IMG/VR virus record: IMGVR_UViG_3300027932_000003
Span: 1-34,531 of that record
Source: a virus
Strand: one strand, 5' to 3'
Length of the DNA stretch: 34,531 nt
Made by a program: the position numbers and the translations under genes. Each line of letters starts with the position of its first letter. The stretch's first letter is position 1. Under the pieces are notes generated by a model that was given only the letters and a program-made list of their open reading frames with translations, was not told the DNA's origin and did not search any database. Of this stretch, positions 2,493-34,531 are shown one piece after another.

Positions 2493-3017
2493 ATGAATAT
2501 AGTTTTGAGAGAATTGAATAAAGAAAAATTTAATATAAATATCACTGCATGGTTAGATATTGATAATGATATTCAAAGTTGTTATACAAATTTTAAAGAA
2601 ATTACGATAGTTACAATAATTCAAATGATTTCTGAAATTGTAGAAAAAGATGGCTGGGATTTACAATATTTTGAGAAAGATGAAGAAGAAAAATTATTTA
2701 ATGCATTTATGAAAAACTCTAAAATTACAGTACGGCTAAATAAAAAGATAGATGAATTGAATTATGATTTTAAAGAAACTATTGTTGAATTTGATTTTTC
2801 AGAAAGTGAGAAAAAGAAAATTGCAGAAATATATTTGAGTAATATACTTAATGAATATCGTTATTTAAATGACTGTATTTTGGAAAATTTAGCAGACAAA
2901 GATATTAATTCGATTTCAGAAGCTTTAAGTAGTGAAGTTTATCAATTATTAAGTTCTGATGAGATAAAAGCAAAATTTAAGGAAAAGATAGAGAAAATTA
3001 ATACTGAAAAAGTATAG
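2493..3017 (+). CDS. hypothetical acidic protein (174 aa)
   Basis: ATG ORF; promoter cataaatatGTCATAaatataaaag at about 2451..2478. Confidence 0.55.
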   Translation: MNIVLRELNKEKFNINITAWLDIDNDIQSCYTNFKEITIVTIIQMISEIVEKDGWDLQYFEKDEEEKLFNAFMKNSKITVRLNKKIDELNYDFKETIVEFDFSESEKKKIAEIYLSNILNEYRYLNDCILENLADKDINSISEALSSEVYQLLSSDEIKAKFKEKIEKINTEKV

Positions 3018-3032
3018 ATAAGATGTGAAAAT

Positions 3033-3194
3033 ATGGATTTAAATGCTCCATTAGATCCAATATGGCTTTTGGTTATTGTTGGAATTTTTTATGAATTATT
3101 ATTTATCTTTTTCTTATTGGAATTAAGACAGATAATGAAACGAATTGAAGAAGAAGAATTAGTCAGAATGTTAAAAAAGAAATATAAAAATTAA
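3033..3194 (+). CDS. small hypothetical membrane protein (53 aa)
   Basis: Hand-translated: MDLNAPLDPIWLLVIVGIFYELLFIFFLLELRQIMKRIEEEELVRMLKKKYKN; one hydrophobic helix followed by a charged tail; starts 16 nt after the stop of 2493..3017; below the ORF-track size cutoff. Confidence 0.3.
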   Translation: MDLNAPLDPIWLLVIVGIFYELLFIFFLLELRQIMKRIEEEELVRMLKKKYKN

Positions 3195-3293
3195 ATAAAT
3201 TTTCACTAAAAATATGGCGTAAGCTACAAAGATAAAAGTTTAGAGAAAACTTTAAATATAAGTTTAGACATATGTTATATTGAGGTAAGAAGA

Positions 3294-3461
3294 ATGAAAG
3301 AAGTAAAAGTTGGAAATTCGAGATATTATATAAGTTCAAGAGATGATGAGATAAGTGTAATACATGAGTTAGTTCAAAAAGGTTACTCCATAAGTCAAAT
3401 AGCTAGTTTGTTGAATATTTCAGAAAGAAAAATTAAAAAATACTTAGAAGATTGTTGGTAA
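3294..3461 (+). CDS. small helix-turn-helix DNA-binding protein (55 aa)
   Basis: Hand-translated: MKEVKVGNSRYYISSRDDEISVIHELVQKGYSISQIASLLNISERKIKKYLEDCW; GYSISQIASLLNISERKIKKYL is a typical HTH; TATA module at 3241..3260 and gaggt 8 nt upstream of the ATG; missed by the ORF track. Confidence 0.45.
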   Translation: MKEVKVGNSRYYISSRDDEISVIHELVQKGYSISQIASLLNISERKIKKYLEDCW

Positions 3462-3642
3462 GTTATTTCTTTTTTTGATTTTTAATTTTTTCTTTTCTTT
3501 TTATTTTTATGTTTTATTATTTTTAGTTTTAAAATATCAATACAAAATTTTCGATAAATTTTGGAATTGAAAGATATGAATGTAAAAGTTTGAAGAAAAT
3601 TTTATAAAGGGCAAATGACATAATGTAAAATTGGAGGTAAAT

Positions 3643-3843
3643 ATGAATTGTGTAACAATTGAACAAAAAGGCAAATATACGTACATAAAATGTAAAAAAT
3701 GTGGAAATGTGCTAATTACAAATGATCCAGAATTATCGTTAGCTCCAATAAAAAATAAACAATTAATATCAATATCTAGCTGTGAGCATTTTCAAGTTAT
3801 TGAAAATGAAGATACAGTCGAAATTATATCAAAACAAAGTTAA
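3643..3843 (+). CDS. hypothetical protein with Cys-rich putative metal-binding motifs (66 aa)
   Basis: ORF track starts at TTG 3631; ATG 3643 is preceded by ggaggt (Shine-Dalgarno-like) and lies about 40 nt from the TATA at about 3597; contains CKKCG and SSCEH. Confidence 0.45.
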   Translation: MNCVTIEQKGKYTYIKCKKCGNVLITNDPELSLAPIKNKQLISISSCEHFQVIENEDTVEIISKQS

Positions 3844-3892
3844 TTTTTTTCTTTTTTAGTTTTAACTTTCTATTTTCTATTTTTATGTTCCA

Positions 3893-3912
3893 TTTTTCTC
3901 AAGTTTGATATA
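3893..3912 (+). repeat. T-tract + palindromic element, copy 3 (tttttcTCAAGTTTGATAta)
   Basis: Same motif family, one mismatch in the right arm of the palindrome. Confidence 0.35.
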
Positions 3913-4014
3913 TTATTTCTAAACTGGAGGAATTAAAAAAGCGTAGGATAGAAACGTAAAACTGTAGAGAAAACTTTATATATAAGTTTTTGCATATTAG
4001 ATATTAGTGATAAC

Positions 4015-4251
4015 ATGAGTCAAAAAGTTAGGTTAGGCAGAAAAGAAAAAGCAGTTTTAGATTTTTTAAAAGAACATGCAGAAGGCGTTTGGAAGACCGA
4101 TTTAATTAATCATTTTAGCTGGGCTAGTCGTTATGATAATGTTATGAACAAAAGGTTACAACAAATGCAGAAAAAAGGTCTAATAATCATAAAAAGTGAG
4201 ATAAATCCGGAAAGCGGAAGAAGTAAGCAAAGAGTTTATTTAAAACAATAA
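4015..4251 (+). CDS. winged-helix DNA-binding protein (78 aa), paralog of 13704..13928
   Basis: Hand alignment with the 74-aa product of 13704..13928 shows shared R-GxxE, W, NKR, KKGL, NPxxGR and VYL positions; TATA module at 3968..3986. Confidence 0.6.
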   Translation: MSQKVRLGRKEKAVLDFLKEHAEGVWKTDLINHFSWASRYDNVMNKRLQQMQKKGLIIIKSEINPESGRSKQRVYLKQ

Positions 4252-4746: not shown

Positions 4747-4798
4747 GTTTTCACAATTACTGTTGTATTATATGACATATAAAAAGATTTTTATTTTT

Positions 4799-5416
4799 TC
4801 AGAATAAAGAGCCAAAACATTTCGCTTTAAACTCACAGGCTTTACATAGATAATTATTCGCGCCAGGTATAGTTTTATAATCTTGTAATTTCATAAATTC
4901 TTTAAATTTCTTAATCCAGTCAATTGCTTTTTGCAGATATGTTCCAATTATAGTTTTATTTATTTGGAATTGTTTAACTTCTTTATTTATTCTATTTAAA
5001 TATATGATATAGACATTATCAATTTTATAGTTTTGTTGTTGTAATAAGTAATAGTAAATTGAGACTTGGTAAAGATGATATTCTTTGATATTAAAGTAAT
5101 TACTTGTGATAGTTTTTAGTTCTATAAGATCATTATTGCAAATTAAGTCAATTCTGCCTGATATTTTTAATCCTTCAATTTCGCCTTTTACTTCAACTTC
5201 AGATTTACAGCCTAGTTTTTCGACAAAATAATTTTCTATTCTCTCGTGATGTTGTTCTCCTAGGTCAAGGCTAATTTCATTTACTGCTTTCTCAAACTCA
5301 AATTTTCTACTAAAATAGCTTTTTCTAAAGCAAATTCCAATTTCGCTAGGAAATATTGTATTCTCTGGATATTTCATTTTGAAGCTTTGTTTTACAAATT
5401 CTTCATAATTTGTCAT
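4799..5416 (-). CDS. Cas4-like / RecB-family nuclease (205 aa)
   Basis: GRIDLI (motif II), IELK (motif III), [11 protein letters not shown] (QxxxY) and C-terminal C-x2-C-x5-C ([10 protein letters not shown]) plus an N-terminal Cys; aggtgg upstream of the ATG; follows the ATPase gene, as in the conserved rudivirus SSB-helicase-nuclease operon. Confidence 0.7.
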
Positions 5417-5418
5417 TT

Positions 5419-6726
5419 TTAACCACCTAAATTACTAAATCTCATTAAGTTTATTATTCTATTACAAATTTCTTCATTTTGTACTTTTCCAATTTGTAAA
5501 TCTATGTCTAATGCCTGTAATAGAATTTGAATATCGATACTTTGCTCTTGTCTTCTGGATTCTAAATTTTCGCAATTTACATAGTTATGAATACTATTTA
5601 TCTTCTGTTGAATTAATTCAATTAATGCTTTTAAAATTGAAGGATAAAGAACTCTTGCATTTATAATTTTATCGTAAGTTTTCTTAATTGCTAATTGAAT
5701 AATATGAATTCTATCTAATATTGCAGAAGTGAAAATTTCATAATTTTGTAGATAGTCTTCTAAATCTGGAGTTACTAATTTATTAATTGTATATGCATAT
5801 GGATTTCCAGCGTAAATAATTGGAATACATTTTTGTATAGTTGCTGATTTTGATTCTGTTCCAGCTCCTCTTGTCCAAATACAATTTTCAATTCCAGTTG
5901 ATAGAGTTGAATTTATAGTATTTAGTTCTTTTGTTGAAAAACCATCTTTCCAATTTTGAATTTCATCAAATATCAAACCGTTTGATAGAAATACAGCTCC
6001 ATACATATTGTTTCGAGCATCATATACCAAATTGGCATAAGTTGGAGCTTCCGTGTAATATCTAAAATTGAAAACTTCTTGTAAAATCATGAAAGTTGTA
6101 GTTTTTCCAGTTCCTCTATTAGAAATTTCAATATAATTTATTTGTCTTTTGGTAATTGGAGATTTGAAAAGTGGGAATAGTCTTGGAAGAAAGAGAAATA
6201 TATCATTTATTTCCATTTTAGTCGGGTCATATCCAAAACTTTGCAATAAAAGTGCATAAGTTGAATATTCTGAATTTGCTAATTCAAATAATTCTTTTGC
6301 AATTTCATAATTGTTGGGTGGCTCAATTGAATAAATATCATAAATACGCCAACCTTCTATACCTTTTCTAATTTTGACAAACATGTAACTTGTAATTAAA
6401 TTATAGAAATTTTCAGGATTATCAGCTATAAAATGTGGATCGAAATTTGCAGTAAAACCATTTTGAAATTTTGCTATAACTTCATCATCTTTTACTTTAA
6501 ACTGTATAATTTTAGAGATAAATTTCACTTCATCATTAAAAAGCAAATAAGATTGAAAATATTGTTGATCAATTCCGCGTTTGTAAGCTTTTAAAATTTC
6601 AATTTTCTTCCTTTCTTCAATTTGTTTTCCAGAGAGAATTATATTTAAAACTCTTTCTGTATCTCTTGGATTATAAAAAAAAGAATGAGATTTTATTTTT
6701 TCAAGAAGTTGATTTGAACTACTCAT
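5419..6726 (-). CDS. P-loop ATPase, putative helicase (435 aa)
   Basis: Walker A NRGTGKTT; size and position between the SSB-like and nuclease genes. Confidence 0.7.
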
Positions 6727-6751
6727 AAAAAAAATGATAACTTATGACGTT

Positions 6752-7165
6752 TTAAAATTCGTCTTCAACATTCTTTTTCTCTTTCTTTTTCTGTGTTTTT
6801 TCCTCCTTTTGGCTTGATTTTTGTTTTTCTTCTTCTTCTTCTGTGTCTATTTCTTCTTCTTGAACAGCATTATTATTCCTTGGCGTAAATTTTACATATT
6901 CGTTTAATAAGTCAGCATATTTATTTAAGAATTCTGAAATTAATCTTAAATCTTCAGCATCATTTGCGGTTATTCCAAGTTGTTTTCTAAAATTATTAGC
7001 AGAATGGATAGTCATTGAGTATCTAACTTTTCCGTCTTGTGGTATTGCATTTAACTGTACAACTATTCTTTTTAGACCTTTGATTTTTAAAATTCTACTG
7101 GCTATTTTATTATTTTCTTTAGCTTGTTTACCTAACTCATCTATTATTTCCTTCAAACTTGCCAT
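6752..7165 (-). CDS. putative ssDNA-binding protein with acidic C-terminal tail (137 aa)
   Basis: Acidic tail EEEIDTEEEEE; first gene of the leftward operon; promoter aaatatGTCATAttataag on the minus strand at about 7184..7208. Function inferred from operon context, not from a motif. Confidence 0.5.
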   Translation of the reverse strand: MASLKEIIDELGKQAKENNKIASRILKIKGLKRIVVQLNAIPQDGKVRYSMTIHSANNFRKQLGITANDAEDLRLISEFLNKYADLLNEYVKFTPRNNNAVQEEEIDTEEEEEKQKSSQKEEKTQKKKEKKNVEDEF

Positions 7166-7265
7166 CTTTTTCGCCTTATTAATAACTTATAATATGACAT
7201 ATTTATATATTTATAAAAGTACAAGCCATGATATTTAGAAGTTTAAAAAAAGATGAAAAAAATAT

Positions 7266-7538
7266 TTAAATTAACTTAAAGAATATAGATCTTATTAATT
7301 TAGATACTTTCATATTATATTTATTTGCTAATTCTTCAAGTTTTTGATAATATAATTCATCAATTGTGAAAAAAACACGCTCATCATAAATTTCACTGAT
7401 TTCAATTTCTTTAAATTCTTTTTGAGAATTTAGAATTTTATCTATTTCTTGTTTTATTGTCTCTCTTTTCTCATAAAAAAGATTTTTATACTTTGATGGT
7501 ATACGTAATTCGATATACTTATTTCTTTGCTTTTTCAT
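7266..7538 (-). CDS. hypothetical protein, possible ribbon-helix-helix fold (90 aa)
   Basis: C-terminal half RVFFTIDELYYQKLEELANKYNMKVSKLIRSIF fits a strand-helix-turn-helix (RHH) pattern; divergent from Rep across a shared 70-bp promoter region. Confidence 0.4.
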   Translation of the reverse strand: MKKQRNKYIELRIPSKYKNLFYEKRETIKQEIDKILNSQKEFKEIEISEIYDERVFFTIDELYYQKLEELANKYNMKVSKLIRSIFFKLI

Positions 7539-7581
7539 AATTTTAGATATTTTCAGGCATTATATAAACATGACATATACA

Positions 7582-7593
7582 TTTAAATGTCAG
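7582..7593 (+). promoter_or_regulatory. Rep promoter: TTTAAATGTCAG (TATA followed directly by GTC)
   Basis: TATA box abutting GTC about 20 nt upstream of the Rep start codon. Confidence 0.5.
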
Positions 7594-7609
7594 GTTTTCA
7601 ATTGCATAT

Positions 7610-7954
7610 GTGAACGGTAAAAAAGTTTTTAGCTATCATTTTCTTTATGTTTACACGTATTTTATTACTATTGCTACAAATTATCACTATAATGATACGA
7701 CAAAAATCTATAAAAAATTCAGACAATATATTTATAATCATGATAAAAATTCTCATATTTTTTCAGTAAAAGAATATACAACAAGATTACATGGTCTACA
7801 TTATCATGTTTTAGTTTTCACGAATAAAAGGCTTGACTATTCCAGAGTTCATAAGCAAATGCCAAAACATTCAGATATAAATATTCAATTAGTTCCAAAA
7901 ACAAAAAATGATATAAAAAAAGTTTTAACTTATATGTTAAAAAATCAAAAATAA
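7610..7954 (+). CDS. HUH-superfamily rolling-circle replication initiator Rep (114 aa)
   Basis: LHGLHYHVLVF (HUH motif: H-hydrophobic-H followed by hydrophobics) and VLTYMLK (YxxK, Tyr at residue 108 by my count). The frame has no ATG before residue 84, so the start is GTG at 7610, right at the expected leaderless position. Confidence 0.75.
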   Translation: MNGKKVFSYHFLYVYTYFITIATNYHYNDTTKIYKKFRQYIYNHDKNSHIFSVKEYTTRLHGLHYHVLVFTNKRLDYSRVHKQMPKHSDINIQLVPKTKNDIKKVLTYMLKNQK

Positions 7955-7955
7955 A

Positions 7956-8243
7956 TTACTTAGATTGAGGTTGTTGATTTTGTTCAGCTTTTTTCTGTGC
8001 TAATGCATTTACATCTCTTAATGTATCCATATTCAAGAGTGAATTAATTCCAAGGGTTGTAGTATCTTTAATTGATTCAACTGCTGAAATTGTAGATTTT
8101 GTCATCTGATCTACTGCAATTTGGAATGATTGATTTGCTTGCTTTTGATTGTAGAGATATACTACTTCTCCAACAACATAGCTAGCTATTAGAACTCCCA
8201 TCAGTACTAAAAATCCTTCTAAAGCTGTTTGGCTTAGTGTCAT
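7956..8243 (-). CDS. small membrane protein, N-terminal TM helix plus helical domain (95 aa); PVAP-like candidate
   Basis: One hydrophobic segment (ALEGFLVLMGVLIASYVVGEVVYLY) followed by about 65 polar, helix-prone residues; architecture resembles the roughly 98-aa rudivirus pyramid egress protein. Assignment is tentative. Confidence 0.5.
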   Translation of the reverse strand: MTLSQTALEGFLVLMGVLIASYVVGEVVYLYNQKQANQSFQIAVDQMTKSTISAVESIKDTTTLGINSLLNMDTLRDVNALAQKKAEQNQQPQSK

Positions 8244-8341
8244 TTCAATTTTATTATATGCAAATTACTTAGTAATAAAGTTTATGCAAAAAATCGAAAT
8301 ATATAAATATGTCATAATGTATGTTTATAAAATGAGGAAAA

Positions 8342-8503
8342 ATGATGGAGAAAGTTAAAAAGGAAAGAACAGTTTTCGGTATAAATATAGATAAAGAATT
8401 AAAAAGAAAATTAAAAGTATATTGTGCAAATAATAATATCACGCTAACAGAAGCAATTGAAGAAGCTTTAGAAGAATATTTACAGAAAAGGGGAACTAAA
8501 TGA
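8342..8503 (+). CDS. ribbon-helix-helix (CopG/Arc-like) DNA-binding protein (53 aa)
   Basis: Hand-translated: [53 protein letters not shown]; promoter atataaataTGTCATAat at 8301..8318; missed by the ORF track. Confidence 0.55.
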
Positions 8504-8646
8504 GAGTAATAACGTTTAAAGTTGAAGAAGATCTTTTGCAAAAACTTGATAAATATGCTATGAATCACAAGCTAAACAGATCTGAAGTAATTAGGCAAGC
8601 ATTAATGGAATTCTTGAGACCAAATACTACAACATATGATAGTTAA
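8500..8646 (+). CDS. ribbon-helix-helix DNA-binding protein (48 aa)
   Basis: Hand-translated: [48 protein letters not shown]; textbook RHH pattern; ATG overlaps the stop of the upstream RHH gene (ATGA). Confidence 0.55.
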
Positions 8647-8701
8647 AAATAAATTAATATATCTTTTTTTATTTTTCATTTTTTTACAAATATATTTCTA
8701 G

Positions 8702-8944
8702 TCATTTCTTTCTTTTTAATCTTTCAATTTCTGCTTTAAGTTCATCAATTTCATCATAAATATCTGCAAAGATATCATAAATTACTACATATATAATTGC
8801 AAAAATTCCAGATGCAAAAAATGTTGATATTATAACTATTGGCATATTTTTTACAAGAATTCCTAATGACATGACTATTAAAGCTAAAGACATTAAAGCT
8901 AAAAAAATTAAGAAAACTATTATTTCACGAAATTCTCTTTCCAT
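8702..8944 (-). CDS. two-TM membrane protein with C-terminal coiled-coil tail (80 aa), paralog A
   Basis: Two hydrophobic segments then ELKAEIERLKRKK; own promoter aaataaatttGTCAGaaaacg on the minus strand. Confidence 0.5.
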   Translation of the reverse strand: MEREFREIIVFLIFLALMSLALIVMSLGILVKNMPIVIISTFFASGIFAIIYVVIYDIFADIYDEIDELKAEIERLKRKK

Positions 8945-8956
8945 TTTTTCTCATTT

Positions 8957-9232
8957 TCATTTTTCGTTTTCTGACAAATTTATTTCTTGTTTTCTCTCTC
9001 TTTTTAATCTTTCAATTTCTAGTTCAAGTTTATTAATTCTTGTATCTAAATCATCTATCAAATCTATTATCCAAGTAAAAATTATTGCCAACAAAATTGA
9101 TACAATTGCGGAATATAAAACTATATTTTGTAGATTTTTAGATAAAATTCCTTCAGAAAATATTAAAAGTATATTAAGTATTACAATTGAAAGCATTATA
9201 GAAATATATAACCTAAAAGCTAATTTGCCCAT
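8957..9232 (-). CDS. two-TM membrane protein with C-terminal coiled-coil tail (91 aa), paralog B
   Basis: Same architecture, ending KLELEIERLKRERK; own promoter tatatatttGTCAGataacg on the minus strand. Confidence 0.5.
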   Translation of the reverse strand: MGKLAFRLYISIMLSIVILNILLIFSEGILSKNLQNIVLYSAIVSILLAIIFTWIIDLIDDLDTRINKLELEIERLKRERKQEINLSENEK

Positions 9233-9287
9233 ACTTTGTCATTCTTATTTTTCGTTATCTGACAAATATATAAGTTTCTATTTCAAA

Positions 9288-9434
9288 TTATTTGGAAGAT
9301 TTTTGATTAAGCTCATAATAAGCCTCAATTAACATTTTTCTAAATTCTTCTAAATCTTCTTTACTTTCAATTATCAAAAATTTTTCTCCATCTTTTTCTT
9401 CAATTCTCATATATGAATATTTGTTATTAGACAT
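9288..9434 (-). CDS. small hypothetical protein (48 aa)
   Basis: Hand-translated: MSNNKYSYMRIEEKDGEKFLIIESKEDLEEFRKMLIEAYYELNQKSSK; 32 nt downstream of gene 9467..9766 on the same strand; no separate promoter seen. Confidence 0.25.
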   Translation of the reverse strand: MSNNKYSYMRIEEKDGEKFLIIESKEDLEEFRKMLIEAYYELNQKSSK

Positions 9435-9466
9435 TTAAAAAACTTTACTTTATCCTTAATTCTGAA

Positions 9467-9766
9467 TTAATGTATTTCATTATTAATTTCACCGCAAAAA
9501 ACTACAATATTAAACATATTTCTATTATATCTCCAATTTATTTTAATATATTGTGGATATTTAAAAGTTTTTATTATATATTTTAAAATTCCAGTTCCTT
9601 TTTTCTCATATCTTTGTTTTGTAATATTCATCCTAATTTTTATAGTTATTAAATTTTCATCTTCTAAAACTAAGTAATCGTAAACATTATCAAAGTAACG
9701 TATTTTCAACCAATCGAATAATTGAAGTGTATATTTTTTACATTCTAATTTGATGAATTCGTCCAT
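9467..9766 (-). CDS. hypothetical protein (99 aa)
   Basis: ATG ORF; promoter atttaattGTCAAattatg on the minus strand. Confidence 0.5.
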   Translation of the reverse strand: MDEFIKLECKKYTLQLFDWLKIRYFDNVYDYLVLEDENLITIKIRMNITKQRYEKKGTGILKYIIKTFKYPQYIKINWRYNRNMFNIVVFCGEINNEIH

Positions 9767-10002
9767 GTTTTAATTTTCATAATTTGACAATTAAATAATT
9801 TTTTGTTACTTTACGTATAGTATAATATAGAATATGCGGAATTAGAAATTATAACAAAAATTACAACTCAGCATATATATTATATAATTTATATAGTTTT
9901 TTCTTTAAATGATGACTCAATTTCATCAACTTATATACATTATATTACATATACGACGTGAAAATTTATATTGTAGAAATTAAAATTTATAATTGACCAA
10001 AA

Positions 10003-10407
10003 ATGGCAAAAGGAAGAACACCAAGGTCCTATAGCCAAAGGTATGCAAAATGGTCAGCTAAATTTGCATCATTTTCAAATCCTACCGTAGCATCTACAAT
10101 TTTAAGTAATGTTTCGCCAGTTGCACAGCAAAATTTCCAAACTAATGTACCAAAGTTTACTAGTGTAAATGAACAAGTTTCTAGCGTATTGTCAGAATAT
10201 GGAATTACTGGCCCTAACAGGGCGATTTACCAAGGTTTCGGTCTTAAGGTAGCTAGAGCTTTAAATAGGTTGGGAGGAGGGCCAGCACTTGTTAACATGA
10301 TAAATGGACTAAAAGCATATTATATTTCAGCATTTAATGCTAATCCAACTGTTCTAGATGCAGTGACAAATATAATCACCGGTTCGCCAACTGGATATGT
10401 AAGCTAA
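10003..10407 (+). CDS. major capsid (coat) protein, rudivirus type (134 aa)
   Basis: Length and N-terminus (MAKGRTPRSYSQRYAKW...) match my recollection of the 134-aa SIRV coat protein; isolated monocistronic gene with a 235-bp upstream region and a long T-rich tail (10408..10518). Confidence 0.85.
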   Translation: MAKGRTPRSYSQRYAKWSAKFASFSNPTVASTILSNVSPVAQQNFQTNVPKFTSVNEQVSSVLSEYGITGPNRAIYQGFGLKVARALNRLGGGPALVNMINGLKAYYISAFNANPTVLDAVTNIITGSPTGYVS

Positions 10408-10518
10408 AAAATTATAGAATATCTTTTAAGCTATTTTATTTTTTTAATTTTTCTTTTTCAGAACTTTAGTTCAAATTTAAAATTTAAAAAAATTTACTTT
10501 TAACTTTTTAACTTGAAA

Positions 10519-10707
10519 TTAATCATTATCATCAATTTTTGTTTCTATATACTCATAATTTGTTTTACTTATTCTTTTACAATCACTAATTTTTACATTA
10601 GGATGATGTTTTTTCAAATGTGTAATCATAGCTTTTCTAGTTCTCGTTAAATGTTGACAAATTGGACATTCAAATAAAAAGATACCCATAGTGTTTTTTA
10701 GTGTCAT
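10519..10707 (-). CDS. C2H2 zinc-finger protein (62 aa)
   Basis: CPICQHLTRTRKAMITHLKKHH = C-x2-C-x12-H-x4-H. Confidence 0.6.
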   Translation of the reverse strand: MTLKNTMGIFLFECPICQHLTRTRKAMITHLKKHHPNVKISDCKRISKTNYEYIETKIDDND

Positions 10708-10725
10708 GACGTTTAAAAGCTTAAT

Positions 10726-11733
10726 ATGAAAACCGTAATTTTGACTATGAATTATTCATCTATAAGAAATGTTTCAGAAGATATTGCACAAGTTTTACGA
10801 AAAAATGGTGAAATTGTTACAATTTCAACAAATCCATATTTAATTCCACAATCTGATAAATTAATAATTTTTATGCCATTTCATCCTCCATCTCTAAATC
10901 CATATTTGTATGCATTTAGAGAATTTAAAGGTAAGAAGTATTTTTATACAACTTGTGATGGTTTACCTAATACAAATATTGTAAATCAATATCTATTAGA
11001 AAATATAATATTTATACCAAATTCAAAGTTTACAGCTCAGAATTTACAAGAAGTTGGCTTAAATGTTGAATTGCCAGTTTTCCATGGTATAAATTTTGAA
11101 ATTGTAGAAAAAGCTGAACAATTAGCTATTCAATTGAAACAAAAATTAGATGCTGATTTTCCAAATGTTGTAAAGTTTGGAATTGTTTCAGGTTTAACTA
11201 AAAGAAAAAATATGGATCTTATGATAAGAGTTTTTCAAGAAACAAATACTAAAATTCCAGAATTAGCCAAGAAAATCCATTTCTTTGTAATTTCTCATAA
11301 AGCATTTAAAGATTTTGAAGTTCCTGAAAATGTGCATTTTGTTAGTGAATTTGGACTAAATCCTAGAGAATATATATTTGCATTTTATTCAACTATGGAT
11401 TTTGTAATTGTTCCTTCTGGAACTGAGGGCTTTGGACTTCCAGTTTTAGAAAGCATGGCTATGGGAACTCCAGTAATTCACCAATTAATGCCTCCATTTG
11501 ATGAATTTACATCATGGCAATGGAATTTACTAATTAAATCATCAGAAATTGAAGAATATTACGATAAAACGCATGGGCAAAAATGGAGAATTCATAAATT
11601 TGATATTCATGACATGATAAATGCAATATTAATAGCTTCAGAACTTCAAGATAGAGATGAGAGAAGTCAAAATTTAAGAGAATTAGCAAAAAGATACGAT
11701 ATTAATAATTTATATGTTAGATTTTTAGAGTGA
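10726..11733 (+). CDS. GT-B fold glycosyltransferase (GT4-like) (335 aa)
   Basis: SGTEGFGLPVLESMAMGTPVI contains the E-x7-E motif of retaining GT4 enzymes; immediately downstream of the coat gene region. Confidence 0.8.
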   Translation: MKTVILTMNYSSIRNVSEDIAQVLRKNGEIVTISTNPYLIPQSDKLIIFMPFHPPSLNPYLYAFREFKGKKYFYTTCDGLPNTNIVNQYLLENIIFIPNSKFTAQNLQEVGLNVELPVFHGINFEIVEKAEQLAIQLKQKLDADFPNVVKFGIVSGLTKRKNMDLMIRVFQETNTKIPELAKKIHFFVISHKAFKDFEVPENVHFVSEFGLNPREYIFAFYSTMDFVIVPSGTEGFGLPVLESMAMGTPVIHQLMPPFDEFTSWQWNLLIKSSEIEEYYDKTHGQKWRIHKFDIHDMINAILIASELQDRDERSQNLRELAKRYDINNLYVRFLE

Positions 11734-11796
11734 CTTCAAGAGCTGATTAATCGAAAAATTTATGTATGTCATAATATATATAATTGTTGTGAGAGT

Positions 11797-11922
11797 ATGA
11801 GAGAGATAATAATCGAATGTAAAGATTTTACAAGATTTCATGTAAAAGAAAAGAAAGGTATACAAATTAAAAATATAATACAAATGTGTCAAAGTTACAA
11901 TCTAGAAGTTAAGGTGTATTAA
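11797..11922 (+). CDS. small hypothetical protein (41 aa)
   Basis: Hand-translated: MREIIIECKDFTRFHVKEKKGIQIKNIIQMCQSYNLEVKVY; preceded by tatgtatGTCATAatatatat; ends 3 nt before the next ATG. Weak. Confidence 0.25.
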   Translation: MREIIIECKDFTRFHVKEKKGIQIKNIIQMCQSYNLEVKVY

Positions 11923-11925
11923 AAA

Positions 11926-12225
11926 ATGCCAAAATTTTATTATTGCTATTTATGTAAAACTACACTTGTTGGGAAAAAACAATTTAAAAAGCATGCACAA
12001 ATACACTTTAAAAACAATAGATGTCCATATTGCAATATGAAAACTAAGAATTTGAATATTCATTTAGCATATTATCATCTAGGATATAGAAGAAAAGCAA
12101 TTTTATTAAGAGATTTAGCAATTTTGTGCAAAGAAGCAAATAGTACAAATATTTTGAAAGATGAAAATCTAAAACTTGATAATTACATCAAATTCAATAT
12201 ACAAAGAATGATGAAAAAGTTATAA
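11926..12225 (+). CDS. C2H2 zinc-finger protein (99 aa)
   Basis: CYLCKTTLVGKKQFKKHAQIH = C-x2-C-x12-H-x3-H, plus a second finger-like CPYCNMKTKNLNIHLAYYH. Confidence 0.6.
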   Translation: MPKFYYCYLCKTTLVGKKQFKKHAQIHFKNNRCPYCNMKTKNLNIHLAYYHLGYRRKAILLRDLAILCKEANSTNILKDENLKLDNYIKFNIQRMMKKL

Positions 12226-12249
12226 TTCTTTTTTTAGTTTGTATTTTTT

Positions 12250-12447
12250 TCACTTCTTATTTTCTGAGTTTTTGTTTAGCAAAACTGATATATCTTTGCT
12301 AATTTCTTCAGATATATTTTTAATTATTTCTAAAGCTTCCAATATTTCATCTTCTTTAAGATCTTCATTTTCATTAATTTCGGTAATTAGACCAAGTTGT
12401 AATTCAAGTAAAATCTCAAATTTTATTAAATCTATCTTTTTTATCAT
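12250..12447 (-). CDS. hypothetical acidic helical protein (65 aa)
   Basis: ATG ORF; promoter atatttGTCATAttttaaattt on the minus strand; preferred over the overlapping low-complexity plus-strand ORF 12239..12463. Confidence 0.45.
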   Translation of the reverse strand: MIKKIDLIKFEILLELQLGLITEINENEDLKEDEILEALEIIKNISEEISKDISVLLNKNSENKK

Positions 12448-12484
12448 TTTCTCACGTAGATAGAAATTTAAAATATGACAAATA

Positions 12485-12712
12485 TCAAGTTTTGCCTAAT
12501 CTCATTTTTATTTCTTCTATTTCTTTTTTAAGTTCATTTTGAGAAATCTTTAATTCCTCAATCTGAATTTTCAGATTTTGTAATTCTGAATTTACTATCT
12601 CTTTAACAGCATCTTTCAGAGCTTGTTTTATCTTAAGATAAAGTTGAACAATTGCGAATAATGTAGTTACAAATGTAGAAATTATAGTTAGAATTAAAGT
12701 TATTTCACTCAT
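12485..12712 (-). CDS. membrane-anchored coiled-coil protein (75 aa)
   Basis: N-terminal hydrophobic helix (ITLILTIISTFVTTLFAIVQLYL) then heptad-like ELQNLKIQIEELKISQNELKKEIEEIKMRL; overlaps the upstream gene by 8 nt. Confidence 0.5.
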   Translation of the reverse strand: MSEITLILTIISTFVTTLFAIVQLYLKIKQALKDAVKEIVNSELQNLKIQIEELKISQNELKKEIEEIKMRLGKT

Positions 12713-13088
12713 CTTTTATTCCCTCTAATTGATCTTCTAAATTATCTAAATTTAAATTTTCATCTTCTTTAAATTTTTGGTAAACAGAATCTACTTGTTT
12801 CGCGTAAGGCTGAGGATAAACTACGCGAAAATCTGCGATATCAATTCTACCAGTTTTAGGATCTTTAGCTATTAAAAATTGGAAATAGAAAGTAAATCCG
12901 GGGATATATAAATCTACAATTATGGGCAATTCTGAATTTTTTAAAACAATAATTGAATGTGGTAAATATTTTGATAATCCATAAATTTGACCTTGTAATT
13001 CTAATTCTCTAATTTTATCTATCGCGATTCTAACAGGGCCGAAAATATTCGCGAATTCATCTTTAACTTGCATAATTATATATTTCAT
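12705..13088 (-). CDS. hypothetical protein (127 aa)
   Basis: ATG ORF, first gene of a two-gene leftward unit. Confidence 0.55.
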   Translation of the reverse strand: MKYIIMQVKDEFANIFGPVRIAIDKIRELELQGQIYGLSKYLPHSIIVLKNSELPIIVDLYIPGFTFYFQFLIAKDPKTGRIDIADFRVVYPQPYAKQVDSVYQKFKEDENLNLDNLEDQLEGIKDE

Positions 13089-13175
13089 AAAACAAGAATA
13101 AATAAACTCAAAGCGAATTTGCTATATACATTATATTATGTATATTAGTTTGTTGTTTAATACGTAAAGCATGAG

Positions 13176-13198
13176 CGAAAGATTTATATATTTCGAAA
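13176..13198 (+). promoter_or_regulatory. Inverted-repeat-flanked TATA promoter (CGAAAgATTTATATAtTTCGaaa) for the zinc-finger gene 13223..13576
   Basis: CGAAA / TTTCG inverted repeat brackets the TATA box; identical 23-mer at 13656..13678. Confidence 0.5.
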
Positions 13199-13222
13199 AC
13201 GAATATTATCTTGGTGAAAAGA

Positions 13223-13576
13223 ATGAGAAGTCAAAAAACACAAAACAAAAGCCAAAACAAGTTACTTTTTTGTAAATTATGTTCTTTCGTAGCTACAAGT
13301 TATGAAGAATTAGATCATCATATAAAAATGAGTCATGAAGAATCAGATGATATTTCTGAAGAATTTCAAGTAATTTTTCTAAAGAAAAAAGACTATGAAG
13401 AGTATATGCGTAAAGAATATTTAAGAATTTGTAAAGGAGGAGGATGTATTATTAGACCACAAATTGATATTGAGAATGACAAAGATGAAATAAAACATTT
13501 ATACAAAGAATATTGTTCAACTTGTGAACTTAAGAAATATCTTCTAGCCGAATTAAAAGAAAACGGAAAAATGTGA
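13223..13576 (+). CDS. C2H2 zinc-finger protein (117 aa)
   Basis: ORF track starts at TTG 13211; first ATG is 13223, 37 nt from the TATA. CKLCSFVATSYEELDHHIKMSH = C-x2-C-x12-H-x4-H; additional C-x2-C (CSTC) near the C-terminus. Confidence 0.55.
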   Translation: MRSQKTQNKSQNKLLFCKLCSFVATSYEELDHHIKMSHEESDDISEEFQVIFLKKKDYEEYMRKEYLRICKGGGCIIRPQIDIENDKDEIKHLYKEYCSTCELKKYLLAELKENGKM

Positions 13577-13607
13577 ATTTATTAAGTCTTTATTTTTTTA
13601 TGCCCTA

Positions 13608-13629
13608 TTTTTTTCAAATTTGTATTAAT
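13608..13629 (+). repeat. T-tract + palindromic element, copy 4 (tttttttCAAATTTGtattaat)
   Basis: CAAATTTG palindrome after a T7 run, 3' of 13223..13576. Confidence 0.35.
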
Positions 13630-13655
13630 ATTTCTAATTTTTAACAAACAGAAAA

Positions 13656-13678
13656 CGAAAGATTTATATATTTCGAAA
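13656..13678 (+). promoter_or_regulatory. Inverted-repeat-flanked TATA promoter, second copy, for the winged-helix gene 13704..13928
   Basis: Same 23-mer as 13176..13198; 38 nt from ATG 13704. Confidence 0.5.
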
Positions 13679-13703
13679 GCATATATTATAATGATGAAAG
13701 AGA

Positions 13704-13928
13704 ATGAGGATAGGTAAAGAAGAAGAAAAAATTTTAGAATATCTTCAAAAAAATGGAGATTCAGAGTGGTTAGATAAATTGAAAAGTACTTTTTCTCATA
13801 CTGTTGGATATAAAATAATTGTAAATAAAAGAATAAAGAATCTAGAGAAAAAAGGTCTAGTAAAAATTGTTTGGGAAAAGAATCCACAGACTGGAAGAAA
13901 TAAAAAGAAAGTGTATTTAGTAACTTAA
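13704..13928 (+). CDS. winged-helix DNA-binding protein (74 aa), paralog of 4015..4251
   Basis: See 4015..4251; conserved NKR, KKGL, NPxTGR and VYL positions. Confidence 0.6.
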   Translation: MRIGKEEEKILEYLQKNGDSEWLDKLKSTFSHTVGYKIIVNKRIKNLEKKGLVKIVWEKNPQTGRNKKKVYLVT

Positions 13929-13954
13929 AATGTAAAGAGATATAGGTGAAAAAA

Positions 13955-14170
13955 ATGAGTGTAGAAAAAGTTGAGCAGAAAATAATTGAAATAGCACATG
14001 AATTTGCTCAAAAATATGGAAAAGAAATCTTGGAATTAAGTGAAGATGAACTAATCTCATATCTAACATCATTTTTTAATTATGAAGAATGGTTGATTTT
14101 TAAACATAATGAAATAGAAATGTTAAGATTATTTTTGAAAACAGTAAAAGAAGATTTATCTAAATCTTAA
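13955..14170 (+). CDS. hypothetical protein (71 aa)
   Basis: ORF track starts at GTG 13946; ATG 13955 is preceded by aggtga; likely co-transcribed with 13704..13928. Confidence 0.45.
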   Translation: MSVEKVEQKIIEIAHEFAQKYGKEILELSEDELISYLTSFFNYEEWLIFKHNEIEMLRLFLKTVKEDLSKS

Positions 14171-32992: not shown

Positions 32993-34531
32993 AAACTCAT
33001 ATTTAAATCTTTCTCTACCTTTTCATGTCTTCATTTTTCGACTTATAATTATGTTATTTTTGATGATCATTATATTTTCTTTCATAAATGACTTTCCCAT
33101 GAATTTTTAATACACCAGTTCTATCAAATTCAGCTAACGCATTCAAATACTCCTTGTAAGCTTTGATAATATAATCTATTCTATTATGCATTCTTTCTAA
33201 AATTTTTTTCTGCTCAGCAGTTAATTTATGTACTCTTGTCATTTTTTATCATCTACAAATCATCATATATTATATGACGAATATAAAACATTCTCTATCT
33301 CCTTAACTCTTATCGCCACCTCTCTCTATAGAGAACGTGTAAATTCTGTCTCTCCAATTTCTCTCATAACACCAAACATAAATTGTTTCCTAACGGTGAA
33401 AAATCCTAAAAAAACCTATTTTAGGTTTGACTATAATTTATTAATTATAAACTACTAACTACATAACTATATAATTATTATATTGAATAACTAGATAGTT
33501 TCCATATTCTCTAAATTATTAAATCTCCTTACAATTTTTACCATAAAATACTGATATAAATCCAAACTGTATACAGAATCTTCTATTGAATTGAAAGAAA
33601 AAAAGAAACTATATTTTACACTTGAACTACAAAACTATAATTATTATATTATAAACTACTAATTAGTAGTTAGCTAATTATATAATTATATAACTTCATA
33701 ATTATATAATTATCTAATTTAAATGTTAATAATAATATATATAAAAAAATAATAATAAGAAGAAAGATAATGCCCACTAACAATACTAAATGCTTTCTTC
33801 TGGTATATAAACTTTTCTTTCTAAACTTCCAATTTCTCCAACACTAAACGCAAAAAACTAACAACACATAACGATTTGAATAAATATAACAAATTAACAA
33901 TATGTTTAGTATCTTTCTAACTTTAAATTGAGGTTTTGGTTTGCTAGAATTAAGAAATTAAATAAATTATGAATATGTTTAGTAACTAAAAACTTTAAAT
34001 TGTGGGTTTGGTTCCCTCCAAATTATAAATTATAATATTATAGTTAGTAGTTATTAATATCCACAAATTAACATTTATTACAAATTTCCAAAGTTTGAAT
34101 TTGCAAATTTTATATTACAAATTTCACTAAATGACAGATTAATTGTAATTTAGGAATTTAGAAAATTAGTATTTTTTATCATAGTTGAAAAATTATTTGG
34201 AAATGTAGAATTATTTGGAATTTAGGAATTTCCAATTTTTTAACTTTTTTGCAGAAAATGATAGATTATTTCAAATTTAGGAAATTAGGAATTTACAATT
34301 TTTCTCATTTTTTGCACAATTTACGCAAAATGACAGATTAATTGGAATTTTGGAAGTTTGAATTTTTTGCACCGCTCCAATTATTATTTGGAGGTGTAGA
34401 ATTAATTGGAATTTCCAATTTATTGCGAAAGTTGGGAAATTTGCGAAAAAAACGAAAAAAACGAAAGAAATTGGAATTTTCAATTTTTTGCATTAGTTGT
34501 GAAATTTTCGCAGAAAATGAAAAAAACTACA
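32993..34531. repeat. Right inverted terminal repeat (ITR)
   Basis: Mirror copy of 1..1539; the window ends with the reverse complement of its first bases. Confidence 0.85.
33054..33242 (-). CDS. ITR-encoded hypothetical protein (62 aa), right copy
   Basis: Identical translation to 1290..1478; mirrored promoter. Confidence 0.5.
   Translation of the reverse strand: MTRVHKLTAEQKKILERMHNRIDYIIKAYKEYLNALAEFDRTGVLKIHGKVIYERKYNDHQK

Follow-up and report, generated by a model that had tools for sequence, protein, structure and literature searches.

The C2H2 zinc finger, the hallmark domain for DNA binding in eukaryotes, is seldom found in prokaryotes, and crenarchaeal viruses are among the few settings there in which it recurs. 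The stretch of DNA analyzed here, IMG/VR virus record IMGVR_UViG_3300027932_000003 (positions 1 to 34,531; the whole stretch is called the window below), is the complete linear 34.5-kb genome of a rudivirus with inverted terminal repeats, because its terminal 60 bases (1-60 and 34472-34531) are exact reverse complements of each other. Its closest relatives are the Yellowstone Sulfolobus islandicus rod-shaped viruses (SIRV) 4-11, which together with the isolates V3, V60, and V65 supply the nearest DNA to positions 10000-14000 (85-88% identity; all genus Usarudivirus); no record identical to the window genome was present in the collection searched. Within 3.5 kb of the major coat protein gene lie three small open reading frames (ORFs), here called A, B, and C, in which an earlier note on this DNA had placed C2H2 fingers. 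All three are present at the coordinates in Table 1 and each contains the finger motif; A, for which no strand had been given, lies on the minus strand. The earlier inventory of three finger genes is thus retained, but it had missed a second finger in B and a four-cysteine (Cys4) site in C.

Searching all six-frame ORFs of at least 40 aa in the genome with the expression C-x2-C-x9-14-H-x3-5-H returned four matches, every one inside A, B, or C, whereas residue-shuffled controls gave a mean of 0.05 and a maximum of 2 (0 of 1000 shuffles reached four). A, the first finger of B, and C fit C-x2-4-C-x12-H-x3-5-H exactly, so that the C-x2-C-x12-H-x3-4-H spacing of the earlier note holds for these but not for the second finger of B, which is atypical (x9). 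The earlier note had also proposed looking for loss of spacing or ligands in homologs; the zinc ligands are retained in all homologs, which were collected from 15 rudivirus records of six genera and from metagenomes. All three genes are under purifying selection, with median pairwise ratios of nonsynonymous to synonymous substitution (dN/dS, Nei-Gojobori) of 0.35 for A, 0.15 for B, and 0.28 for C, compared with 0.08 for the coat gene. The short length of the ORFs, the AT-rich genome (G+C about 25%), and the lack of a Pfam match at threshold might suggest chance Cys/His patterns in spurious or non-functional ORFs. This explanation is refuted by the conservation and selection analyses and is extremely improbable, given also the excess of motif matches, the significant profile matches to true fingers, and the conserved promoter preceding each gene. 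A, B, and C are therefore confirmed as real genes whose proteins carry the classical (beta-beta-alpha) C2H2 zinc-finger motif, and we infer their zinc binding from the sequences.

Table 1. Coordinates of the three zinc-finger genes, their putative control elements, and neighboring genes in the window.
Feature	Position	Strand	Description
Gene A	10519..10707	-	single C2H2 finger, ORF of 62 aa, CPIC-x12-H-x3/4-HH
Finger of A	10603..10668	-	CPICQHLTRTRKAMITHLKKHH; match to the search expression
Putative promoter of A	10708..10719	-	CTTTTAAAC and then GTC; within the 18 bp that separate A from the divergent glycosyltransferase gene
Gene B	11926..12225	+	99 aa, two tandem fingers and a basic, predicted helical C-terminal half
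Finger 1 of B	11944..12006	+	CYLC-x12-H-x3-H, canonical
Finger 2 of B	12022..12078	+	CPYC-x9-H-x4-H, non-canonical x9 spacing
Putative o41-B promoter	11753..11781	+	CGAAAAATTTATGTATGTCATAAT (B recognition element (BRE)/TATA and GTCATAA), 38 nt before the o41 ATG; motif scan
Gene C	13223..13576	+	117 aa from ATG; basic N-terminal tail, C2H2 finger, acidic linker, Cys4 domain
C2H2 finger of C	13271..13336	+	C17, C20, H33, H38
Cys4 site of C	13430..13525	+	C70, C75, C98, C101
Early-type promoter and 5' leader of C	13176..13219	+	CGAAAGATTTATATATTTCGAAAACGAATATTATCTTGGTGAAA, including the palindrome TTTCGAAA
Second early-type promoter copy	13656..13699	+	before the winged-helix gene o74a
o74a	13704..13928	+	74-aa winged-helix protein; Pfam HTH_24, E = 3e-5
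Major coat protein gene	10003..10407	+	134 aa; Pfam PF12193 Sulf_coat_C, E = 1.2e-75
GT4 glycosyltransferase	10726..11733	+	335 aa, homolog of SIRV2 ORF335; Pfam Glycos_transf_1, E = 8e-12
o41	11797..11922	+	41-aa ORF, 3 nt upstream of B; phrog_12004, E = 3e-26
75-aa ORF	12485..12712	-	N-terminal segment ITLILTIISTFVTTLFAIVQLYL hydrophobic by inspection

The profile search proposed in the earlier note gave significant matches to eukaryotic C2H2 fingers for the family profiles of A and C, but not for B or for the single window proteins. The window proteins have in common with eukaryotic fingers (PF00096, PF13894, PF24540; CTCF, HIC2, ZFAT) the ligand pattern and the hydrophobic core positions; they differ in carrying one or two fingers in 56-117 aa without the TGEKP linker. 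Scans of A, B, and C against Pfam, NCBIfam, and PADLOC returned nothing above threshold and no defense-system family, and their sub-threshold Pfam matches were to C2H2 models only. The recurrence of such fingers in crenarchaeal viruses, as stated in the earlier note, is supported by the literature: one or two proteins with classical fingers are typical of rudiviruses, lipothrixviruses, fuselloviruses, and bicaudaviruses (Guillière et al., 2013, PMC3541406), and a 2017 review names AFV1p06 as the sole characterized crenarchaeal viral zinc finger (PMC5569661). AFV1p06 (Acidianus filamentous virus 1 ORF59a, PDB 2LVH) binds one zinc ion and DNA (PMC3541406). It shows no detectable sequence homology to A, B, or C, its structure being absent from their complete phmmer lists (E up to 10), and it differs from them in using Glu as the fourth ligand, in coming from a different virus family, and in having its homologs in fuselloviruses.

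The description of the three genes as clustered holds for their position near the coat gene, but not for their origin or control. A, B, and C belong to three unrelated families, whose promoters and phyletic spread differ, and they do not appear to form one functional cluster. Profile-profile comparison (hhalign) gave probabilities of only 1-21% among them, confined to the motif, and recent paralogy was rejected on these results; in PHROGs they fall into three different families, each of unknown function. Comparison for presence and absence among rudiviruses, also suggested in the earlier note, showed A in all Icelandic and US SIRVs and in none of SRV, ARV1, SSRV1, SBRV1, and SMRV1. B occurs only in Usarudivirus and hot-spring metagenomes, apart from a distant SBRV1 homolog, and C only in part of Usarudivirus (not in SIRV4, 10, and 11), with its finger module alone forming SIRV3 gp06 near the genome terminus and recurring in the bicaudavirus SMV3. 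B and C are located in variable islands between conserved rudiviral core genes, for which we used the genes for the coat protein and the 335-aa glycosyltransferase and the homologs of SIRV2 ORF84c, ORF110, and ORF488. Word-indexed homolog searches for the three proteins returned only close relatives (6, 10, and 21 proteins).

Gene A (phrog_6283, E = 5e-28) has a fixed location, antisense between the coat and glycosyltransferase genes, in SIRV1, 2, 3, 4, 5, 7, 9, 10, 11, V3, and V60. Its translated search (tblastn) identities are 73-98% within Usarudivirus and 50-53% in SIRV1/2/3 (E = 1e-10). In SRV and SSRV1, the small ORFs that separate the coat gene from the glycosyltransferase gene were considered as A homologs and rejected, as they lack any Cys/His motif. 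Residues M7, C14, C17, H30, and C43 are invariant in the family, as is a conserved C-terminal extension motif (S-D/N-C-K/R-R-I-S...E-Y-I/V-E). Every family member has the fourth His, which occupies column +4 in the Icelandic SIRV1/2/3 and +5 in some of the Yellowstone relatives. The start of the predicted finger helix is basic, with R24 and K25 conserved, and the isoelectric point (pI) is 9.9 for the finger region and 9.2 for the whole protein. Searched against PDB, the family profile matched classical fingers, namely HIC2 (E = 1.3e-6), followed by CTCF and ZBTB7A. On identity and position, A is assigned as the syntenic ortholog of SIRV2 gp27/ORF55 and SIRV3 gp20, the latter already annotated as a "C2H2-finger transcriptional regulator". 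SIRV2 gp27, SIRV1 gp20, and SIRV3 gp20 resemble A over both the finger and the C-terminal extension and have the same position, antisense orientation, and TATA-GTC promoter layout. The Yellowstone A proteins differ from the Icelandic ones in having the last His at +4 and/or +5 and in the N-terminal extension of the ORF, and 18 bp separate A from the glycosyltransferase gene in the window, compared with 87-131 bp in the Icelandic viruses.

Promoters in Sulfolobus have the TATA box centered near -26. On the strand of A, the sequence of the gap is CTTTTAAAC-GTC-ATG, in which a TATA element resembling box A is followed by a GTC element, with the annotated ATG inside; a GTC element has been reported for SIRV promoters (PMC5569661). 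Counted from the start of the TATA element, the Met7 codon (10689) is 28 nt downstream, the same layout precedes the Met7-equivalent ATG by 28-30 nt in SIRV2 and isolate V60, and SIRV2 ORF55 is annotated from exactly this Met7-equivalent. Since the distance from TATA to Met7 fits Sulfolobus promoter geometry, A is probably translated from Met7 as a 56-aa protein on a leaderless mRNA.

Gene B (phrog_12334, E = 2e-59) retains all eight ligands in every full-length member of its family. The protein is basic (pI 9.9), with Lys at contact positions in both finger helices, and its C-terminal 45 residues are basic (pI 10) and helical in a low-confidence predicted model. A distant homolog outside Usarudivirus is the SBRV1 (Japarudivirus) ORF7-98 "Zn finger protein", which is colinear with B (98 compared with 99 aa), has both fingers at the same positions, and shares 27% identity (BLASTP E = 8e-5; hhalign probability 85%) and an HLAYY/HLAYWY motif. 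In contrast to B, its second finger has canonical x12 spacing, and its gene lies in the left arm, adjoining a ribbon-helix-helix (RHH) gene, and not near the coat gene. SSV1 B129 (PDB 2WBT), cited as a viral protein with two C2H2 fingers, was not among the sequence-search matches of B and is likened to it by architecture only. In the RefSeq records of SIRV4, 7, 8 (gp30), and 9, the B homolog is started at an internal Met, which leaves a 62-aa product without finger 1 and without the two cysteines of the second finger. An intact 99-aa ORF retaining every ligand was found at 3691-3990 in SIRV7, 11975-12274 in SIRV9, and 3012-3311 in SIRV4 (coordinates of the sequences compared), and in SIRV5, 10, and 11 the homolog is annotated at full length.

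B begins 3 nt after the o41 stop codon, with a Shine-Dalgarno-like AAGGTG 11 nt before its ATG, and is probably co-transcribed with o41 from a TATA and GTC promoter of the common SIRV type. This promoter element also precedes the homologous ORF in isolates V3 and V60 and in SIRV10, and o41 itself is conserved in Usarudivirus, with weak matches in SIRV1/2/3. The GTCATAA of the putative o41-B promoter is also found in the promoter of the SvtR-like RHH gene (8342..8503). The regions 8296-8345 and 11753-11797 share ATCGAAA-N-AT-N-TA...TATGTCATAAT, a TATA box followed by a GTC element as in SIRV1/2 promoters.

Gene C (phrog_18124) encodes a two-part protein. An in-frame TTG at 13211 (121 aa) was considered as its start and is less likely than the ATG, because all homologs have MRSQ or MTNKK at the N-terminus and a GGTGA is found 8 nt upstream of the ATG. 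In 20 family sequences down to 45% identity, F16, C17, C20, L30, H33, and H38 are invariant, and the four Cys residues of the Cys4 site are invariant in all full-length members. The AlphaFold2 (AF2) model predicts a beta-hairpin and helix at residues 15-37, disorder at 40-49, and a three-helix C-terminal part. The family profile had 234 matches among 1.84 billion representative proteins (E down to 1e-28), most of them multi-finger proteins matched through profile positions 5-56, and one relative (P0078) scores 28.3 bits on PF24540, above the 27-bit gathering score. The predicted contact positions of the finger are S26, E28, E29, and H32; the linker EESDDISEEF has a pI of 4.0, and the stand-alone relatives (47-63 aa) have acidic-aromatic tail ends. 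By tblastn, C is 54% identical to SIRV3 gp06 (E = 9e-6) and 46% identical to SMV3 (E = 2e-7). Record IMGVR_UViG_3300027931_000010 encodes a protein 100% identical to that of gene C, with an identical upstream region.

The Cys4 domain, which matches no Pfam or PADLOC family, also exists as a stand-alone protein of 59-60 aa, including one in S. islandicus Y.N.15.51, a Yellowstone host strain. Because the Cys4 domain and the finger module each occur alone, C looks like two mobile-element modules fused into one protein. A contig scan of species-representative genomes for the stand-alone Cys4 protein gave no match, and the Y.N.15.51 copy was located by exact look-up. It lies in an integrated element on chromosome CP001404.1 (about 1.30 Mb; 4768-12369 of the stretch compared), about 7.6 kb long and flanked by the two parts, N-terminal and C-terminal, of a split SSV-type integrase. 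Besides the 59-aa Cys4 homolog at 8001-8180, this element encodes a TrmB-related protein of 664 aa and has RHH/MazE-like genes, and a 5.3-kb metagenome contig shows a similar order of genes. In a second architecture of the C family, found on IMG/VR contigs including SMV3 and in the proteins P0048, P0078, and P0144, the basic tail, finger, and acidic stretch are fused to a C-terminal domain of another kind, about 60 aa long (KTLKEKA..L.LL..G...NEY.G.C, with the Cys at the end).

The early-type promoter and leader of C and the region before o74a form a 44-nt direct repeat (86% identical), whose 23-nt core occurs twice where 0 occurrences are expected. In the repeat, GAAAGATTTATATAT comprises a purine-rich BRE and TTTAWATA with 0 mismatches to the early consensus, and the TATA box of C starts 40 nt before the ATG. 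The same BRE/TATA core precedes the terminal genes at 1519, 1939, 3245, and 3969 (+) and 33013 (-), as well as early genes known from SIRV2 and SIRV3, in every case 38-43 nt upstream of the ATG, and a strong BRE/TATA precedes all C relatives in IMG/VR, including the bicaudavirus ones with other C-terminal domains. The palindrome TTTCGAAA occurs only twice in the genome, each time directly after the TATA box of C or o74a, and is a likely candidate operator. The bicaudavirus-like C members have in its place an inverted repeat, CTGCC...GGCAG, over the BRE. The small terminal ORFs (1519, 1939, 3245, and 3969 on the plus strand; 33013 on the minus strand) are preceded, at 40-43 nt, by the early-type sequences AGAGAAAG/A-N-TTTAWATAT-GAGTTT; these ORFs are likely the anti-defense or early gene set of the window virus, and one of them, a 55-aa helix-turn-helix protein (3294..3461), looks like an Aca8 homolog. 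A 22-nt repeat, TATATACATTATATTAYRTATA, is found with 91% identity at 9932-9953, upstream of the coat gene, and at 13123-13144, in the divergent intergenic region between a 127-aa ORF and gene C, where it holds the inverted repeat TATACAT/ATGTATA; the two copies may represent a shared regulatory site.

In SIRV2, an early regulatory sequence of this BRE/TATA type marks the immediate-early genes, including anti-CRISPR genes, and has been used for predicting anti-defense genes (Bhoobalan-Chitty et al., 2024, PMC11065993). Supplementary file 3 of that paper lists SIRV9 gp33, SIRV7 gp27, SIRV3 gp06, and SMV3 gp47 as family ADG.04, and on sequence similarity C is assigned to this predicted anti-defense family. 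It shares 65-77% identity with SIRV7 gp27 and SIRV9 gp33, it has the basic tail, C2H2 finger, and acidic stretch of SIRV3 gp06 and SMV3 gp47, and its upstream region has a strong regulatory BRE/TATA of the kind found before these genes. In C, the finger is joined to the Cys4 domain, whereas the bicaudavirus-type members carry another C-terminal domain. The words zinc, C2H2, and finger are absent from the main text of PMC11065993, the ADG.04 entries examined in it carry no function or domain annotation, and the homologs of A and B that were looked up are not in its ADG listing. The winged-helix neighbor o74a has a 78-aa paralog at 4015..4251, is 39-43% identical to SIRV9 gp09, V60, and ARV1 gp38, and weakly matches NCBIfam Sta1; its relatives SIRV9 gp09 and ARV1 gp38 are entered in the same listing as ADG.02, "putative transcriptional regulator" (PMC11065993).

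Taken together, we lean towards three zinc-protein families with different roles, in which A and B would be nucleic-acid-binding regulators and C an early bipartite protein. Because they are basic (pI 9-10) and carry Lys/Arg at the starts of the finger helices, A and B would most likely bind nucleic acid, probably DNA. For A, DNA binding by a lone finger with a conserved extension is plausible by analogy with AFV1p06; it would act like that protein or the GAGA factor, in which a lone finger needs flanking segments for DNA binding. The tandem fingers of B would be enough for about 6 bp, and its basic helical tail could mediate oligomerization. C differs from both in its acidic finger helix and linker and in having the additional Cys4 site. 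Judging from its early-type promoter, a strong BRE/TATA typical of rudiviral immediate-early genes, C is probably made immediately after infection, and it would be either an Aca-like early regulator or a protein that binds some component of the host or of a defense system, rather than a classical sequence-specific transcription factor.

Several observations weigh against this assignment of roles or against parts of it. With the Pfam C2H2 models, all window proteins score below the gathering threshold, the best being C with 23.3 bits compared with 27 for PF24540. In A, the fourth ligand does not occupy one fixed column (+4 or +5), and the invariant Cys43, in the conserved C-terminal motif, could be the real fourth ligand; moreover, literature searches on the expression or function of SIRV2 gp27/ORF55 found nothing relevant. 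The B family is shallow (75-90% identity), which makes the invariance of its ligands weak evidence; its profile reaches the CTCF tandem fingers in PDB at only E = 0.04, its second finger combines the x9 spacing with the lack of the conserved aromatic residue, and its AF2 model is poor (pLDDT 58), so that a Foldseek search on it was uninformative. For C, the ADG label in the literature is based on promoter similarity only. The flanks of its promoter (CG...TTTCGAAA) are unlike the terminal early consensus (AGAG...GAGTTT), because of which C and o74a may form their own regulatory subclass and C may not share the regulation of the terminal genes.

Two other readings were weighed against this division of roles. 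If all three proteins were ordinary sequence-specific DNA-binding transcription factors jointly regulating the adjacent structural and glycosylation genes as one regulatory cluster, the annotation of SIRV3 gp20, the DNA binding of AFV1p06, the basic character of A and B, and the position of all three genes no more than 3.5 kb from the coat gene would be readily accommodated. We nevertheless regard this as unlikely, considering that the families are unrelated and differently promoted, that A follows the Icelandic and US SIRVs, B Usarudivirus with a distant homolog elsewhere in the SBRV1 genome, and C a subset, with the SIRV3 module terminal, that the putative recognition helix of C is acidic, and that B and C lie in variable islands between core genes. 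The fingers could instead be protein- or RNA-binding modules docking on host RNA polymerase, the ribosome, PCNA, or a defense complex, with zinc mainly stabilizing very small proteins at 80 degrees C. Such a role is possible especially for C; as a general account we hold it to be rather improbable, given that the similarities found are at the level any C2H2 finger gives and that A and B have the basic helix start typical of nucleic-acid binders.

A related proposal concerns gene C in particular, namely that ADG.04-type proteins are immediate-early host-takeover or anti-defense effectors and not transcription factors. Here the acidic-helix finger and the acidic-aromatic tail would act as a conserved module for targeting or mimicry, to which exchangeable C-terminal domains are attached (the Cys4 domain, the bicaudavirus-like domain of about 60 aa, or none), and the TTTCGAAA palindrome beside the duplicated promoters would serve to turn off C and the winged-helix gene. 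We put this forward tentatively, as a doubtful but specific possibility. The favored reading, with A and B as nucleic-acid-binding regulators and C as an early bipartite protein, leaves both an Aca-like role and a host- or defense-binding role for C.

The surroundings agree with the earlier description of finger genes interleaved with a glycosyltransferase gene and small acidic or membrane ORFs: besides the GT4 gene, an acidic ORF of 65 aa (pI 4.5) and the 75-aa ORF with a hydrophobic start were found, and the latter may be a membrane protein, judging by eye from its N-terminal hydrophobicity. The coat protein is 99% identical to those of SIRV8/9/10, and the glycosyltransferase shows 56-93% identity across all rudiviruses examined. 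An Rfam scan of the whole genome found no RNA family, and a scan for sigma-70 promoters and intrinsic terminators remained at chance level, these models being irrelevant to an archaeal virus. Another possible small metal-binding protein is encoded in the left arm by a 70-aa ORF (3631-3843, +), in which a CKKC pair is followed further on by a Cys/His pair (SSCEHF).

Crenarchaeal viral zinc fingers, SIRV3 gp20 as a C2H2 regulator, and the C family as ADG.04 were already known, and the window genome adds no new kind of protein. What is added here is the description of three genes with four fingers as a trait of Usarudivirus, the second finger of B and the shortened annotation of B in several RefSeq records, the probable Met7 start of A, by which the start codon of a core SIRV gene has probably been mis-set, and, for C, the Cys4 domain, the architecture of separable modules, and the duplication of the early promoter. 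The analysis thereby separates a core SIRV single-finger gene, a double-finger gene of the Yellowstone lineage, and a modular early-gene family with swappable C-terminal domains. Within the last of these, C is a testable candidate for an Aca-like regulator or a zinc-finger anti-defense protein in archaeal viruses, and if it were such an anti-defense protein, it would represent a classical finger used non-transcriptionally outside eukaryotes.

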